Below, piece after piece: positions 26,933 through 34,663 of a stretch of DNA of 64,000 nucleotides; position 1 is the first letter of the stretch; each line of letters begins with the position of its first letter. A program made the translations under genes and the position numbers. The DNA is from Dictyostelium discoideum (taxonomy: Eukaryota). The notes under the pieces are model-generated. The model saw only the letters and a list, made by a program, of their open reading frames with translations. It was not told the origin of the DNA and made no database searches. The DNA lies in the NCBI GenBank assembly GCA_000004695.1, contig CM000154.2, positions 1,312,001 through 1,376,000 on the forward strand, read 5' to 3'.

Positions 26933-27548
26933 ACTAGAATTATTATTTTGATCCGTTATGATTGTAATTTTGAATTGATCACTCCTATCTCTCTCTCTCT
27001 TTTTTTTTAATACTATACTATTTATTATTATTTTTTATTTTTATTAAATATGATATCAATAAGGAACTAATACACAACAATGAATTATTCCTTATCTTTT
27101 CCAATTTATAAAAATAACAATGATAATATAATATTATTAAAAAAAAAAAAAAAAAAAGAATTAAATGTGAAATTTGATTTAATAAAATTGAATTTTAATT
27201 TATTTTTTTATTATTTTATTTTTTTTTATTGTATCTTGTTTTATTTGTTTGTTTTATAAAAAAAAAAAAATAAAAAAAAAATAAAAAAATAAAAAAATAA
27301 AATTTTAAATTAAAAAAAAAAAAAAAAATTTTAAATTAAAAAAAAAAAAAAAAATATAAAAAACAAAAAAAAATAAAAAAAAAAAAAAACTTTTATTGAC
27401 TCTAGATTTAAACTTTTTTTTTATTTTTTTAAAAAATAATTAATAAATAAATTAAAATTTAAAAAGTGAATATATAAAAAATTAAAATTTATTATATTTA
27501 TTTTTAAAAAAAAAAAAATAGAAAATAATAATTAAATATTATTATTAT

Positions 27549-28470
27549 TTAATTTAAACCCAATAATTGTGATGAAATTTGATTTAATGGGAAATCTTTA
27601 AGTTCATCTGAATTTTCAATTATTGATTTAATTTGATTTTTACGATGTTGATAACGGACTGAATTGACGGTACTGGTTGGAAATATCTTTATAAATTGGG
27701 CCATTCTTGGATTGAAACTTTTATTTGACATACTACCATGTGGCATTTGTTGATTCCAAACTACTATACTTCCCTTTCTCATTGATATTCTTTTGGCATA
27801 TTTAAATGCGATATCTTTTTTATCGAAATTCCAACTTGGACTTGTGTATTGTGGTTTTTTCGATGTAAAATATTCGTTGAATATAGTGTGAAACCCTGGT
27901 GTCACACAATAGCCCCCATCAAGTTCTTGGTTATCCAACAGGTTTATCACACCTTGTAATTGCAAACCGTCATTTTGGGTGGGTTGGTTATTCTCCACAA
28001 TGAATTCACCCAATCTTGCGTATGTCAATTTACTCAATTCCTCTCTACAAATGTCGCCATTACCCATCCAATTGTATGGATTCATATCTAAATGAACATT
28101 GTCATTTGTCTTCCATTTTGGGTTCACCAATGTTGGTCTAAAGAAACATGCCCTGTCATGGTTTACCATTAAATCTTGATTCTTTAATAATTTAGAAAAT
28201 ACTTTATAAACATTTGGATTGGTACGATTCATTAAAAATTGTTTTTTAAATATTGGTGGTTTACTTGGTGATCCATACTGTGGTATTGACGAACCATCTT
28301 CTGAAAATGTTTGATCCCATGTACTTTGGTCATTTCTATCAAATGTTTTAACTTTACTTTCTATTATATCAAATATTTCACCAACTGTTTTATTACAATC
28401 TTCTTCACTTATTACATTTCTTATTACTAAAAATCCATATCTTTCAAAAAATTCATAAGGATTATTTTCT

Positions 28471-28513
<43 letters not shown>

Positions 28514-28598
28514 AGTTATCTAAATCCTCTAATGAAAATGATTTAGAATATCCTTCATTATCAATTGAAATTTTAAATGATTTTAAAATTTCTTCCAT
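27549..28598 (-). CDS. Phytanoyl-CoA dioxygenase (PhyH)-like 2OG/Fe(II) oxygenase family protein
   Basis: Intronless 349-aa ORF. ERYGFLVIRNVISEEDC is a PhyH-type N-terminal motif. An HxD...H metal triad is plausible (VHLDMNP ... MPHGS). Confidence 0.55.
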
Positions 28599-28726
28599 TT
28601 TATTATTATTTTTATTTTTTTATTATTATTACTTTTGATCTATCCTTGTTTTTTTTTTTTTTTTTGGTGGTTTTTTGACTTTTTTTTATTTTTTTTTTTT
28701 TTGGGAAATTTCACATTTTTCTTATT

Positions 28727-28774
<48 letters not shown>

Positions 28775-29245
28775 TTATTTTTATCACAATTAATTACAAA
28801 AAAGGAAAAACACTTTTTAATAAAAAAATAAAAAAAAAAATAAAAACACAAAAATTGTTGGGGTATTTTTTTTGTTTTTTTGTTTTTTTTTTTTTTAATA
28901 GATTTATTTCAAAGAGATTGAAAAAAAGAATTCCAATAATAAAATGACCCTTTGATAGCTAATAAACATTTATTTTGTTTTCATAGATACACATATATTA
29001 TTTGAATTTTTTTAATTTTTTTATTTTAATTTTTATTTAATTTTGATTTAATTTTATTTTTTTTTATTTTTTTTTATTTTTTTTATTTTTTTTTTAATTT
29101 AATTATTATTATTATTATTTTCACACCTATTTTTAAAAAAAAAAAATTAAAAAAATAAAAATAATTTTTTTTTTTTTTTCATTTTCATTTCAATTCAATT
29201 TTACTAAACACAACATAACCTTATTATAAAAACAAACATATAAAA

Positions 29246-29248
29246 ATG
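29246..29248 (+). CDS. Metallothionein-like Cys-rich protein, exon 1 (ATG only, then GTGAGT intron)
   Basis: ATG is immediately followed by donor GTGAGT. A 140-nt T-rich intron ends at 'gtatttag' at 29388. Confidence 0.5.
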
Positions 29249-29317
29249 GTGAGTAAAATTTTAATTCTCATTAATTTATTAAATTATCAATATAATTGTA
29301 GTTCATAATATTAATTT

Positions 29318-29363
<46 letters not shown>

Positions 29364-29388
29364 CTTCTTTCTCTTCTTCTGTATTTAG

Positions 29389-29541
29389 ACACACTCATGT
29401 AAATGCGGAGACTCTTGCCAATGTGGTGATAAATGTACATGTGGACCAAAGGAAACACCAAAATGTGGATGCAGTGACTGTAAATGTGGCGATAAATGCT
29501 CAAGTGATTGCAAATGCACCTCTTGCACCTGTAAAAAATAA
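29389..29541 (+). CDS. Metallothionein-like Cys-rich protein, exon 2 (51 aa total, about 18 Cys)
   Basis: THSCKCGDSCQCGDKCTCGPKETPKCGCSDCKCGDKCSSDCKCTSCTCKK*. It has CxC/CxxC spacing, a CKCTSC core as in vertebrate MT (CKCTSCKK), and no aromatic residues. Confidence 0.6.
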   Translation, partial: THSCKCGDSCQCGDKCTCGPKETPKCGCSDCKCGDKCSSDCKCTSCTCKK

Positions 29542-31262
29542 ATTTTACCTTTAATAAATAAACAATTATCATTCAAAAAAAAAAAAAAAAAAAACAAAAC
29601 AAATTGTTACCAACTCAAATCAACCAATAAAATTTCAAAAATCAAGTTACTTTTCTATTTTTATTTCTTTCTATTTTTTTTTTTATATTTTTTCCTCTTT
29701 TCTTTCTATTTTTTTTTATTTTTCCTCTTTTCTTTCTATTTTTTTTTTTTTTTCTCTTTTCTTTCTTTTAAAATATTCATAAAATTTGGAAATAAATTAA
29801 AAAAAATAAATAAAATTAACAATTAATTACTTATGATATCTTTAATTGTTATCTTTTTTTTTTTTTTTTTATTATAAAGTCAATTTTTTTTTTTTTTTCA
29901 TAATTCAAAGATACCATACTTCACATCCTTTTGGGGAAATGACAAATAATAAATAAAATAAATTATTTTTAGAATTTCTAAAAACGTAAAAAAATGAAAT
30001 ATTTTTATTTTTTGTGAAATTTTTATTTTTTTATTTTTTTAAAATGTCCCACAATCATATTGAATAGTTGGTCTAGGTTAGAGCAAATTAAAGATTGTTT
30101 TTTTAAAATTTGAACAATTAAATGTGTACCCAAATACTCTTTCTTAAAATTAATTGGAAAGAGTCGTTCCTGTACCCAAGAAAAACCTTTACATGTATGG
30201 TAAAACACTGACTAGGAAGGCATCTCGCCAATTTTAGCTGGTACTTGGATTGTATTACATTCCCTAAAAATAATTTCTAAAAAAAAAAGAAAAAAAAAAA
30301 TATATGTGTATAATACACTCTTTTAAATCAACTTGACCTTTTACTCTAATATATAAATGTATCAAATAATAACAAAACTTTTTTTTTTTTTAAAAAAAAA
30401 TTCAAATAATATTACCTTAATTATTTTTATTTTTATATTTGTTTATTTAACTCTCCTTTACAGAAAAATTGCAAAATAAAACGAATAAATTTATAATTTA
30501 GATTGTAATTTTTTTCTAATTCGAGTAATGTTATCATAATAATAATATATTGATAAAGGCATTCAAGCCTGACACTTGAGAAAAAAATACTTTCATTCTA
30601 TTTTTTTTTTATTTTTTTTTTTTTTAACAACAATTTAATTTTTTTTATTTTTAAAAATGAACTAAGTATTGATAAATAGAACACTCAAAAATATACAAAC
30701 TATATAAAAAAATGAATGTAATAATAAAAAAATAATAAAAAAAAAAAAAAAAATAAAAAAAATAAAAAAAAATTAATTAAACAACTTAAATTATTTGCCA
30801 TCAAAAAAAAAGCTTTTTTTTTTTTTTTTTTTTATAAATGTTATAAAAAAAATAATAAATTATATAAAAAAAAGAAAAACCCTTTTTGAACATCATTTTT
30901 AACTGAAAACTTTTCTGATCTGTAAAATAATTATTACTGCGCAACGATTTGTTAACAAATGCAAAATTAGATATTTTCAAAAAATTTTGTTTTATTTTTT
31001 TAAATTTTTTTATTTTTTTTTATTTTTTTTTTTTTTTTTTATTTTTTTATTTTTTTATTTTTTTATTTTTTTTTTTGTGCCTTTTCAATATAAAAAATTT
31101 TTCTTTTGAAAAATAAAAAAAAAAATTTTATTTATTATTTTCTCATTATTGTTATTGTTGTTTTTTATTATTTTTATTTTCATTAATTAATTCAATAAAT
31201 AAAAAAAAAAAAAAAAAAAAAAAGAATAGTTTCAATTTGGATTAAATAAAAAAAAAAAAAAT

Positions 31263-31269
31263 ATGGAAG
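31263..31269 (+). CDS. Acidic-N-terminus / multi-TM membrane protein, putative exon 1 (ATGGAAG, then GTAATT)
   Basis: ATG GAA G is followed by donor GTAATT. It joins in phase to acceptor 'tttag' at 31519. Speculative; the alternative start is the track ATG 31483 inside an A-run. Confidence 0.3.
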
Positions 31270-31519
31270 GTAATTGGTTTTTTTTATTTTTTTTATTTTA
31301 TTTTTTATTTTAATGAAAATAAACAAAATAGAATATATATATAATAATAAACACACAAATATCCAGTGTGGTGCTATGAATCATAGCACTTTATATTTAT
31401 ATCATATATTAACTTTATTTTTTTAATTATTTTTTATTTTTCTTTTATTTTTTTATGAAAAAAAAAAAAAAAAAAAAAAAAAATGAAAATAAAAATAAAA
31501 ATAAAAAAAAAAAATTTAG

Positions 31520-32309
31520 TATTAGCATCAGAGATATCATCAAATGAAAAATCAGCTTTTACAGAGGAAGAAGATGATTATTATGAATTTTCAGACTCTG
31601 AAACAGATTCTTTAGATTATAACCTTGAAGATTCATCAAATGACGAGAATAGTGGGGATGGTGATGGTGATGGTGGTGTTGTAGAAAGTGATGATAATAA
31701 AAATTTAAAACGTAGAAAAAGATCAAAAAGACCAACAACATTAGGAGAATCAAATAAAGATGGTGAAACAGCCAATTCAGTATCGATTTCAGCAGGTACA
31801 TCAAAATCAAACATTTCATCACCATTAGTTGATGGTGCTGACATTTTATCAAAACCAAATAGTAGCCCAACAAGTAGTAGTTTAAGTGGTAGTAATAGTG
31901 CAAATGGTTTCTTATCAGATGATGATGATTTATTATTAAATGGTAATGAGCAATTAAATGAAAACCACAATACTAATTCAACCAATGGTGCTACCAATAA
32001 TAACAACAACAATAACAACAACAGTGGCAGCAATAGTCCATCACATCAACAATCATCAGAATTACCATTATTAAATTTATTTCAAAAGTTTTTAAATAGA
32101 GAAGCAATTAAAGTTTTACAACAAAGACATTCAGCAATTAATAATAGATTACAAAGATTAAAGAAAGTAGTTGATCCAAAGAAATTACGTGAAAGAGGTA
32201 AAATCTTAAAAAATGAAAAAGAGAAAATTAAGTCATTAATTAAATTAAAGAAAGTTCAATTAGATGATCATATGAATGCGCCACCATTTATTAGATTATT
32301 AGATAAATG
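31520..32309 (+). CDS. Acidic-N-terminus / multi-TM membrane protein, exon 2 (S/D/E/N-rich hydrophilic domain with a basic KRRKRSKR patch and coiled-coil)
   Basis: In frame with track ORF 31483..32313. Donor GTAAGT at 32310 leaves phase 2. Confidence 0.6.
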
Positions 32310-32423
32310 GTAAGTTTTTATTTTATTTTCAAATTATTGTGTGTGTGTGTGTATGTTAAATAATTGGAAAATTTTAATATTAACAAATAATTAATGTTTT
32401 ATTTTATTTTATTTAATTTATAG

Positions 32424-33366
32424 TGCATTTACAATGGGATTAATAATTTTAATGGTATCAGAATTTGTTTTATTAAAATCACCACAATTATTTTATTTAT
32501 GGTACACAGTATTAATATTTCCATTGATGGCAATTAGATTTGTAATGTATCATCGTGAGAAATATCATTATTTCATGTTGGATTTCTGTTATCTTTGTCA
32601 AATATTGCTATTGTTTTATTTGTTTGGTCATCAATATATTTTAGGAGAAAAGGTTACACCAAATTTATTCAAATTGGTATTTGCACTAAGTAATGGTCCA
32701 TTGGCATGGGGTACAATCGTATGGAGAAATAGTTTAGTATTCCATGATGTTGACAAGTTGACATCGGTTTTCATTCATCTTTGTCCACCAATTGTAACCT
32801 ATTGTTTGCGTTGGTTCCCAAACGTTTATCCAGAGCAATTGGCATGTGGTGGTGTAGAGTGTGTTTTATCCTTTAAAGAGATTTTCTTTGTTCCATTCAT
32901 GGTGTATGCATTTTGGCAAGTCTTTTACTACATTAAAACTGAGGTGGTCGATAGTGACAAATTAGCCAATGACAAGGAAATAATGACCTCTTCAAGATGG
33001 ATGTCTGTAAAACAACCCCACCCAATCTATAGATGGTGTCAAAAGAATGGTTACAACGTTAGTCCTGTGGTTATTTTAATTTTAGTTCAAATGCTTTACA
33101 CTTTGGCCACTTGTATCTCTTTACCTTTCTTAATTCAATCATTTTGGTTACACACTGTCTTTATGATTTACATCTTTGTCACAATCTCTTGGAATGGTGC
33201 CTCTTATTATTTCGAAGTTTTCTCTGAAAACTATAGTTCACGTTTAAATAGTGAATTCAAACATAAACACAACAAAGATCAACCTTTAAAAATTACTTCA
33301 ATCAAAGCTTTCTTAAAATTTTTAGCTTTATTCTTAACTTCTTTAATAGTTTATTTGAAATTAATT

Positions 33367-33372
<6 letters not shown>
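32424..33372 (+). CDS. Acidic-N-terminus / multi-TM membrane protein, exon 3 (at least 8 predicted TM helices)
   Basis: Acceptor 'aatttatag' at 32423. TG+T makes Cys and the frame runs into track ORF 32434..33372, so the two track ORFs are one gene. Confidence 0.6.
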
Positions 33373-33403
<31 letters not shown>

Positions 33404-33477
33404 AATAATTAATTAAAAAAAAAAAAAAAAAACCAATAAAATATAGTAATAATAATAGTAATAGTATAAAATAATTG

Positions 33478-33483
33478 TAGTAA

Positions 33484-33571
<88 letters not shown>

Positions 33572-33572
33572 T
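33478..33572. repeat. (TAA)n microsatellite
   Basis: Read directly in the sequence. Confidence 0.9.
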
Positions 33573-33782
33573 TAATAACAATGGGAAAAAATTTTCATTG
33601 GCCACATTGTTTTTTATTCACAATTAAAATAAAAATATTAAAAAAAATAAATAAAATAAAATGTATAATTTACAAATAAAAAAAATCCGTTTTTTTTTTT
33701 TGAAGTTCCTTTTTAATTTTTGGGGTTCATTTTTTTTTCACTTTTTTTTTTTTCATTAATTTTATAAACATTACCAAAAAAA

Positions 33783-33923
33783 ATGAGTGGCAAAGAAGAC
33801 TTAGAATCACCTTCAAATTCATCGTCACTTAAAAAAATTGATATCAGTAAAGGGCCCTTTAATATTACTGTATCCAATGCGGCAACAATTGTAAATCTTT
33901 TATTGAAGAGATACAAATATTAA
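33783..33923 (+). CDS. N-terminal segment of a coiled-coil protein gene, out of frame with the main ORF
   Basis: ATG opens MSGKEDLESPSNSSSLKKIDISKGPFNITVSNAATIVNLLLKRYKY*. One extra T in the T4 run at about 33897 would fuse it to the downstream ORF as ...NLFIEEIQILKNEILEKEKCIQ. Confidence 0.35.
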   Translation: MSGKEDLESPSNSSSLKKIDISKGPFNITVSNAATIVNLLLKRYKY

Positions 33924-33934
33924 AAAATGAAATA

Positions 33935-34663
33935 TTGGAAAAAGAAAAATGTATACAAGAAGTAAAAAATTTTAATATTCCCATACCATTAATAGAGAAG
34001 GTTGTAAATACTTTTATGGAAGATAAGGAAAAAGAAAATGAAACTAGACTCACTTCATTTGTACATTCTCAATCTATAAAATTAAAAAAAAAAGAAAAGG
34101 AATATGAAAAGAAGTTAGATGAAAGGGAAAAAAATTTACCTGAAGAAAAAGAAAGGGAGTTAAAAGAAAAAGAAGAAGTTATTGCTGGTTTGCAACAGGA
34201 AAAAGTAGAATTGGTAAAAAGAGTTGAAGAACTCGAACAAAATTTATCGAGGGTCCAAAGCATAAACTCCCAATTATCTGCTGATGTAACTCTTTTACGT
34301 TCAACTTTCAAAACAAATCAAACTGAAATTGATACAAAAATTAAAGATTTAGAAGATAGGCTTGCAGCAGAGAAGAAAAGAGAAGGTCTTAAAGCAGCAG
34401 CTTATAATTATTCATCTGAGGTTTCAAATTATTACCTCAAACATTCTTTATTACCATTACTTACAACCACTAGTGGGTATGCTTCATTTGTAAATAGTTT
34501 TAAACCTGGTAAAAAACCACCCAAATTCGAAAAGTACTTTGAATTGAACTATTATAAAGATCCAGATATTATCGCTCTTGCAAAAAATAATCACAATATA
34601 GATTTAACTCTTCTATATGATCTTATTTTTAAAAAAAAAAAAACATTACACATTTTGTATTAG
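33935..34663 (+). CDS. Coiled-coil protein, main ORF (MEDKEKENETRLTSF...EKKLDEREKNLPEEKERELKEKEEVIAGLQQEKVELVKRVEELEQNL...)
   Basis: Track ORF (TTG-initiated by the ORF caller). The first in-frame ATG is MEDKEK at about 34008. It ends in DLIFKKKK at an A13 run. Confidence 0.55.
   Translation: MEKEKCIQEVKNFNIPIPLIEKVVNTFMEDKEKENETRLTSFVHSQSIKLKKKEKEYEKKLDEREKNLPEEKERELKEKEEVIAGLQQEKVELVKRVEELEQNLSRVQSINSQLSADVTLLRSTFKTNQTEIDTKIKDLEDRLAAEKKREGLKAAAYNYSSEVSNYYLKHSLLPLLTTTSGYASFVNSFKPGKKPPKFEKYFELNYYKDPDIIALAKNNHNIDLTLLYDLIFKKKKTLHILY

Follow-up and report, generated by a model that had tools for sequence, protein, structure and literature searches.

Dictyostelium serves as a model phagocyte for the metal poisoning of bacteria and shows a very high tolerance of copper and zinc, which reviews credit to efflux and the contractile vacuole. 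One D. discoideum gene, DDB_G0288281, is annotated as a putative metallothionein, and Bozzaro et al. 2013 (PMC3777012) left it as a question whether it is a true one. In the passage where that review cites Burlando 2002, a chemical assay is described as having found no metallothionein activity in D. discoideum. A 2018 preprint likewise states that classical metallothionein activity was not detected in Dictyostelium. A 2020 survey counted one predicted Dictyostelium metallothionein in GenBank (2019) and two Cavenderia proteins as metallothioneins.

Here, we analysed a stretch of 64,000 nucleotides of D. discoideum chromosome 5, hereafter the window. Judged from its sequence and that of its relatives, the locus is likely to hold a stand-alone two-exon gene, very probably DDB_G0288281, that would encode a 51-residue cytosolic metallothionein with 15 Cys. 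The window has a G+C content of 14-31% in 2-kb bins and is colinear with the chromosome-scale contig CM142511.1 of GCA_054883475.1 (over 15 kb, no mismatch and 23 gapped positions). The AX4 proteins matched exactly in it are pdx1 (EAL63292), the Frag1-like protein Q54J51, and a DUF2838 protein (EAL63300.1 / Q54J57).

The identity of the locus with DDB_G0288281 is, in all likelihood, correct, because the gene identifier adjoins those of atg101 (DDB_G0288287) and pdx1 (DDB_G0288299), both in the window at 11 and 22 kb from the gene, and because GenBank holds a single Dictyostelium metallothionein. Strict counting of identifiers along the window puts ...281 one gene further, on the DUF2838 gene, and the deposited exon structure of DDB_G0288281 may differ from the model presented here. 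A search of the literature and supplements for DDB_G0288281, the neighbouring identifiers, UniProt accessions, and PF12749 returned only PMC3777012, and the gene is unmentioned in a D. discoideum copper RNA-seq paper and one of its supplements. The initial annotation had considered that a bona fide small metallothionein would be notable in this lineage. The Pfam match described below (41.6 bits on PF12749) supports a metallothionein-like product, but the gene is not new, as it is already known as a prediction under DDB_G0288281 and covered by a curated Pfam family. To this we add evidence of coding constraint, the conservation of the start-codon intron between dictyostelid groups, three orthologues that lack annotation, and one mis-fused model; the gain is thus confirmation and annotation clean-up rather than discovery.

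In the proposed structure, a phase-0 intron separates a first exon that contributes only the ATG from a second exon of 50 codons. The intron begins with GTGAGTAA at 29249, continues through a T-rich stretch, and closes with GTATTTAG at 29388. The frame of exon 2 reads THSCKCGDSCQCGDKCTCGPKETPKCGCSDCKCGDKCSSDCKCTSCTCKK, and the predicted spliced product of 51 residues is MTHSCKCGDSCQCGDKCTCGPKETPKCGCSDCKCGDKCSSDCKCTSCTCKK. The coordinates of the features are given in the table.

Table. Features of the predicted metallothionein gene; positions are those of the window.
Feature	Position	Strand	Description
Conserved upstream block TTTTCATTTCAATTCAA	29182..29198	+	about 64 nt before the ATG; 11-mers common to D. 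discoideum, D. citrinum, and D. dimigraforme
Exon 1, coding part	29246..29248	+	start codon alone, context AAAATG (29243-29248)
Intron, phase 0	29249..29388	+	140 nt, GTGAGT...poly-T...TTTAG
Exon 2	29389..29541	+	50 codons (THSCKC...CTCKK) and TAA stop (29539-29541); holds all 15 Cys
Rival donor GT in the last Cys codon (TGT)	29531..29532	+	T/GTAAAA; considered outside the functional gene
Two overlapping AATAAA hexamers	29553..29562	+	12-21 nt past the stop; read from the sequence

The intron directly after the start codon had been proposed in the initial annotation as ATG, then GTGAGT, to tatttag at 29246-29541, and this arrangement is present base for base and conserved in relatives. Exon 2 has no internal Met and is preceded, in frame, by the stop codon TAG of the acceptor, so it would be untranslatable without an upstream exon; for the same two reasons a plain ORF finder misses it. 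The ORF track had been described as showing only spurious antisense frames here. Antisense ORFs are indeed listed (29303-29572 and 29385-29597) and the gene is hidden from the list, but one out-of-frame ORF on the plus strand is listed besides. An earlier acceptor near 29300 was rejected: it would give a poly-Phe peptide, and D. citrinum and D. dimigraforme do not conserve it.

The surrounding sequence supplies further candidate elements. The conserved upstream block is probably the 5'UTR or the transcription-start region, and the sequence contains no ATG between this block and 29246. The AATAAA pair is likely the polyadenylation signal, although such hexamers are weak evidence in a genome so A+T-rich; an AATAAA also lies within about 50 nt of the stop in each orthologue. 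The G+C content of the exon is 41%, compared with 11-15% in the intron and flanks (13% in the intron), and the exon is the sole non-repeat stretch with more than 9 Cys per 50 residues in the six frames of the 64-kb window. A micro first exon is also found in the neighbouring DUF2838 gene, whose 7-nt exon (31263-31269) is required to obtain the exact AX4 reference protein; micro first exons are normal at this locus. Taken with the comparative data below, the sequence supports the two-exon model, from which we infer transcription and splicing in vivo.

On the other side, a gene of the phytanoyl-CoA dioxygenase family (27549-28598, minus strand; PF05721 in homologues) points away from the metallothionein gene, with a 647-bp upstream region common to both. 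A search with this gene returned no proteins from the genus Dictyostelium and orthologues of at most 62% identity from other dictyostelid genera.

Orthologous loci were reached via the neighbouring DUF2838 gene. In D. dimigraforme, the product of the 50-residue exon is identical, with 9 nucleotide differences of which 9 are synonymous and 0 non-synonymous; D. citrinum shows 8 synonymous changes, 1 non-synonymous change (S29N), and 1 extra codon. With 27 synonymous and 123 non-synonymous sites, Fisher tests give p = 6e-8 for the 9/0 count and p = 3e-6 for the 8/1 count. Identity to these two species is 92-94% in the exon, compared with 58-68% in the intron and flanks and 60-66% in the intron alone. 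Intron length varies across the three Dictyostelium species (140, 103, and 112 nt), whereas the sole exon indel is the one whole codon in D. citrinum. These comparisons indicate that the exon is under strong purifying selection.

The splice signals are also retained. AAAATG followed by GT(G/C)AGT is kept in both close relatives, with the ATG at L003 3911 in D. citrinum and at L008 2646 in D. dimigraforme, and the TTTAG acceptor is kept in all three Dictyostelium species, which belong to group 4. In Tieghemostelium lacteum, a much more distant relative, the intron again lies right after the ATG (L004, minus strand, ATG at 12095-12093): AAAATG and GTAATT...AATAG are followed by GCACATTCTTGTAAATGC, encoding MAHSCKCGDSCKCGDSCTCGQTEQKPEHKETKECKCTTCKCSPCTCK. 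The gene there adjoins the DUF2838 gene tail-to-tail on the opposite strand. Residues 1-20 are nearly invariant across the four species. The gene is absent from the annotation at D. citrinum L003 3911-4172, D. dimigraforme L008 2646-2913, and T. lacteum L004 12095-11882 (minus strand). In C. fasciculata, A. subglobosum, H. album, and P. violaceum, the flanks of the syntenic genes were searched out to 10 kb and yielded no copy.

These data bear on the simplest alternative, namely that this A+T-rich intergenic DNA holds an open frame by chance or the remains of a dead gene. Such a reading would be in keeping with the failure of a plain ORF finder to list the exon and with the lack of annotation for it in the assemblies of the two close relatives and of T. 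lacteum. The synonymous and non-synonymous counts, the exon-specific G+C content and conservation, the codon-sized indel, and the splice sites in four species all argue against it. We consider this alternative ruled out by the comparative data, with next to no probability left to it.

Codon usage in the exon is distinctive as well. The Cys codons of 29389-29538 comprise 7 TGC and 8 TGT, whereas eleven other long ORFs in the window together have 4 TGC and 78 TGT (Fisher p = 1e-4), and the synonymous differences between species are mostly TGT/TGC swaps. Translational selection on an mRNA so dense in Cys codons may account for the richness in TGC.

A different gene structure appears in the annotation of GCA_054883475.1, where the Cys-rich exon forms the N-terminal head of a 627-aa DUF2838 / glycerophosphocholine-acyltransferase membrane enzyme carrying both PF12749 and PF10998 (window 29246-33372; L002 16826-20951). 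Joining 29246-29248, 29389-29530, 31520-32309, and 32424-33372 reproduces this product (KAM9947171.1, 627 aa) exactly, and the reading phase fits; the Cys-rich exon is thereby spliced to exon 2 of the downstream gene. The identifier count that puts DDB_G0288281 on the DUF2838 gene also means that the dictyBase model could conceivably be fused.

However, the AX4 protein (EAL63300.1 / Q54J57) is a stand-alone product of 581 aa that starts MEV from its own 7-nt exon, and the annotations of D. citrinum and D. dimigraforme likewise give stand-alone DUF2838 proteins, of 583 and 580 aa, respectively. The Cys-rich head is absent from the fully read orthologues, which are those of T. lacteum, C. fasciculata, and A. 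subglobosum and two dictyostelid-like proteins. D. citrinum and D. dimigraforme have TGC as their last Cys codon and thus lack the donor GT of the fusion. The stop and the KK tail are conserved. In T. lacteum the tail-to-tail arrangement on opposite strands makes a fusion impossible. The fusion would further need an intron of 1,989 nt (acceptor at 31519/31520), compared with 114-250 nt for the other introns at the locus, and this intron would enclose a conserved snoRNA-like gene and the promoter of the neighbour. The Cys-rich exon has its own stop and AATAAA, and the neighbour its own first exon, as expected for stand-alone genes. We therefore regard the fused gene as very unlikely and its 627-aa product as most likely an annotation artefact; a minor fusion isoform specific to D. 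discoideum has a small residual chance. Annotations miss the stand-alone gene because its first exon is a bare ATG, which makes it easy to lose: it is left out of three recent dictyostelid annotations and joined to its neighbour in another.

The intergenic DNA between the two genes contains further conserved elements. A CCCACAA motif at 30048-30054 on the plus strand, which we take to resemble the Dictyostelium upstream sequence element of ncRNA genes, is followed about 65 nt further by a block of about 145 nt (30121-30264). D. citrinum and D. dimigraforme have this block almost unchanged, whereas the surrounding DNA is poorly conserved. It folds into a hairpin, an AGAAAA hinge, a second hairpin, and an ACAUUC 3' end, with one compensatory change from U-A to A-U, and thus looks like an H/ACA box snoRNA gene by its sequence and predicted fold. 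An Rfam search of 27000-34000 gave no match at E <= 1. A second conserved block (30814-31252) is 80-82% identical in D. citrinum and D. dimigraforme and lies just upstream of the 7-nt exon of the DUF2838 gene; it is probably the promoter and 5'UTR of that gene, or another small RNA.

We then turn to the product of the stand-alone gene. The initial annotation had given 18 Cys among the 51 residues; the count is 15 (29%), at positions 5, 7, 11, 13, 17, 19, 27, 29, 32, 34, 38, 42, 44, 47, and 49. Its description of a CxC and CxxC arrangement with no aromatic or His-rich core holds: seven CxC pairs are present, all Cys are spaced as CxC, CxxC, or Cx3C, the intervening residues being Lys, Gly, Asp, Ser, and Thr, and the protein has no Phe, Tyr, or Trp and a single His. 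An N-terminal module with 6 Cys (CxCx3CxCx3CxC), nearly invariant in dictyostelids, is joined by the linker GPKETPK to a C-terminal module with 9 Cys (CxCx2CxCx3Cx3CxCx2CxC). The T. lacteum orthologue has 12 Cys in 47 aa, arranged as 6+6, and differs by a CKCGDKC-like insertion. The D. discoideum protein is small (below about 10 kDa) and lacks a hydrophobic stretch, a leader, and a signal peptide. In size, Cys content, motif type, scarcity of aromatic residues, and absence of a leader, the predicted protein agrees with the descriptive definition of a metallothionein. An AlphaFold model from the single sequence without metals had a pLDDT of 58 and no secondary structure, with the minimum at the linker; such a low-confidence model is as expected for an apo-metallothionein and speaks neither for nor against metal binding.

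To place the protein in a family, we compared it with Pfam. Residues 4-51 match positions 12-59 of the 59-position profile PF12749 (Metallothio_Euk, Eukaryotic metallothionein) with 41.6 bits and E = 1.2e-10; the curated gathering cut-off of this family is 22 bits. The first 11 positions of the profile are absent from the dictyostelid protein. The D. citrinum orthologue (52 aa) scores 42 bits, and the T. lacteum orthologue is unmatched by PF12749 at E <= 1. In a control scan, human MT2A matched PF00131 and fly MtnA matched PF02067, while the snail, Neurospora, and C. elegans metallothioneins were unmatched. Since these other metallothioneins miss PF12749, the profile is not merely detecting Cys content.

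A real gene could also encode another kind of small Cys-rich peptide, redox-active or secreted and disulfide-rich, with a Pfam match that is compositional only. The negative chemical assay that Bozzaro et al. report from Burlando 2002 would be consistent with this, as would the T. lacteum score below the PF12749 cut-off. Metallothionein families are, moreover, compositionally biased, which makes profile matches less specific, and the phmmer self-match of the protein carries a bias term of 42. Against such a peptide stand the missing signal peptide and hydrophobic stretch, the lack of aromatic or aliphatic core residues, and a Cys spacing that is the signature of metallothioneins and not of disulfide knots. 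At 41.6 bits, the PF12749 match reaches nearly double the curated cut-off, and metallothioneins of similar composition miss the profile. We consider a non-metallothionein peptide unlikely, and the sequence features support a metallothionein-like product.

Searches of protein collections returned no relatives. Exact look-up of the 51-aa protein and of its 52-aa (D. citrinum) and 47-aa (T. lacteum) orthologues gave no entry in a collection of 15 billion proteins. A word-indexed homology search with the 51-aa protein found no relative, and a full phmmer search against 1.84 billion representatives returned 0 matches. In a local phmmer control, the self-match had E = 8e-23 and the T. lacteum orthologue E = 0.04. 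As a self-match would have scored 8e-23 and nothing was returned, the library does not contain the protein, and distant relatives lie below the reach of the search. A metagenome scan for the motif CKCGDSCxCGD gave a single match, in an unrelated bacterial SIMPL protein. This SIMPL/DUF541 protein (PF04402; metagenome contig Ga0209694_1000206, L009 1802-2300, plus strand) begins with a tail rich in Cys, CDCGPECTCGC...CKCGDSCSCGDNCKCGC, after which comes a hydrophobic segment. The tail is metallothionein-like, and the protein is unrelated to the dictyostelid gene.

With the metallothionein as the preferred reading, a function can be proposed. The mRNA would join the bare ATG to the 50-codon exon, and the thiolates of the product would enclose Zn(II)/Cd(II) or Cu(I), forming a pair of metal-thiolate clusters. 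From the Cys counts and by analogy with known M3Cys9 domains, the stoichiometry may be about 2+3 divalent ions, or a larger number of Cu(I). In an amoeba whose tolerance of Cu and Zn is unusually high, the protein would thereby keep metal in the cytosol buffered or detoxified. The strong constraint on this metallothionein gene means that the genome at least encodes a thiolate buffer for the cytosol. The metal response element of the metazoan type (TGCRCNC), a metazoan feature, was found upstream in none of the four species.

A broader proposal is a long shot. It would see a conserved dictyostelid metallothionein family, marked by the invariant module MxHSCKCGDSCxCGDxCTCG, a start-codon intron that has persisted from the divergence of groups 3 and 4, and linkage to the GPC-acyltransferase gene, as the missing cytosolic Zn/Cu buffer, with a GT in the last Cys codon, found only in D. 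discoideum, able to allow a fusion transcript.

Outside PF12749, the protein resembles several known metallothioneins. With respect to the Drosophila MtnA type (PF02067, family 5), residues 4-30 align with profile positions 14-40, but the score of 18.5 bits is below the 25-bit cut-off, and the Dictyostelium protein is not a member.

Vertebrate metallothioneins (human MT2A) share the small size, the approximately 30% Cys, the two Cys modules, the richness in Lys, and the hexapeptide CKCTSC. This hexapeptide, which the initial annotation had likened to the vertebrate one, is present at residues 42-47, but PF00131 is unmatched by the 51-aa protein even at E <= 10, whereas human MT2A scores 81 bits. 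The 15 Cys of the Dictyostelium protein are arranged as 6+9 and include no CC doublets, in contrast to the 20 Cys arranged as 9+11 in vertebrates. The likeness to vertebrate metallothionein is thus superficial.

The best match among solved structures is the Cd-metallothionein of Helix pomatia (PDB 6qk5/6qk6), at a non-significant E = 2 and 12.5 bits. Here, the snail segment CQCGSKCQCGEGCTC aligns with CKCGDSCQCGDKCTC of the Dictyostelium protein, the two having in common a run of CxC motifs three residues apart. The snail protein divides 18 Cys evenly between two domains of 9 Cys each, compared with 15 Cys (6+9) in Dictyostelium, and the resemblance is probably convergent.
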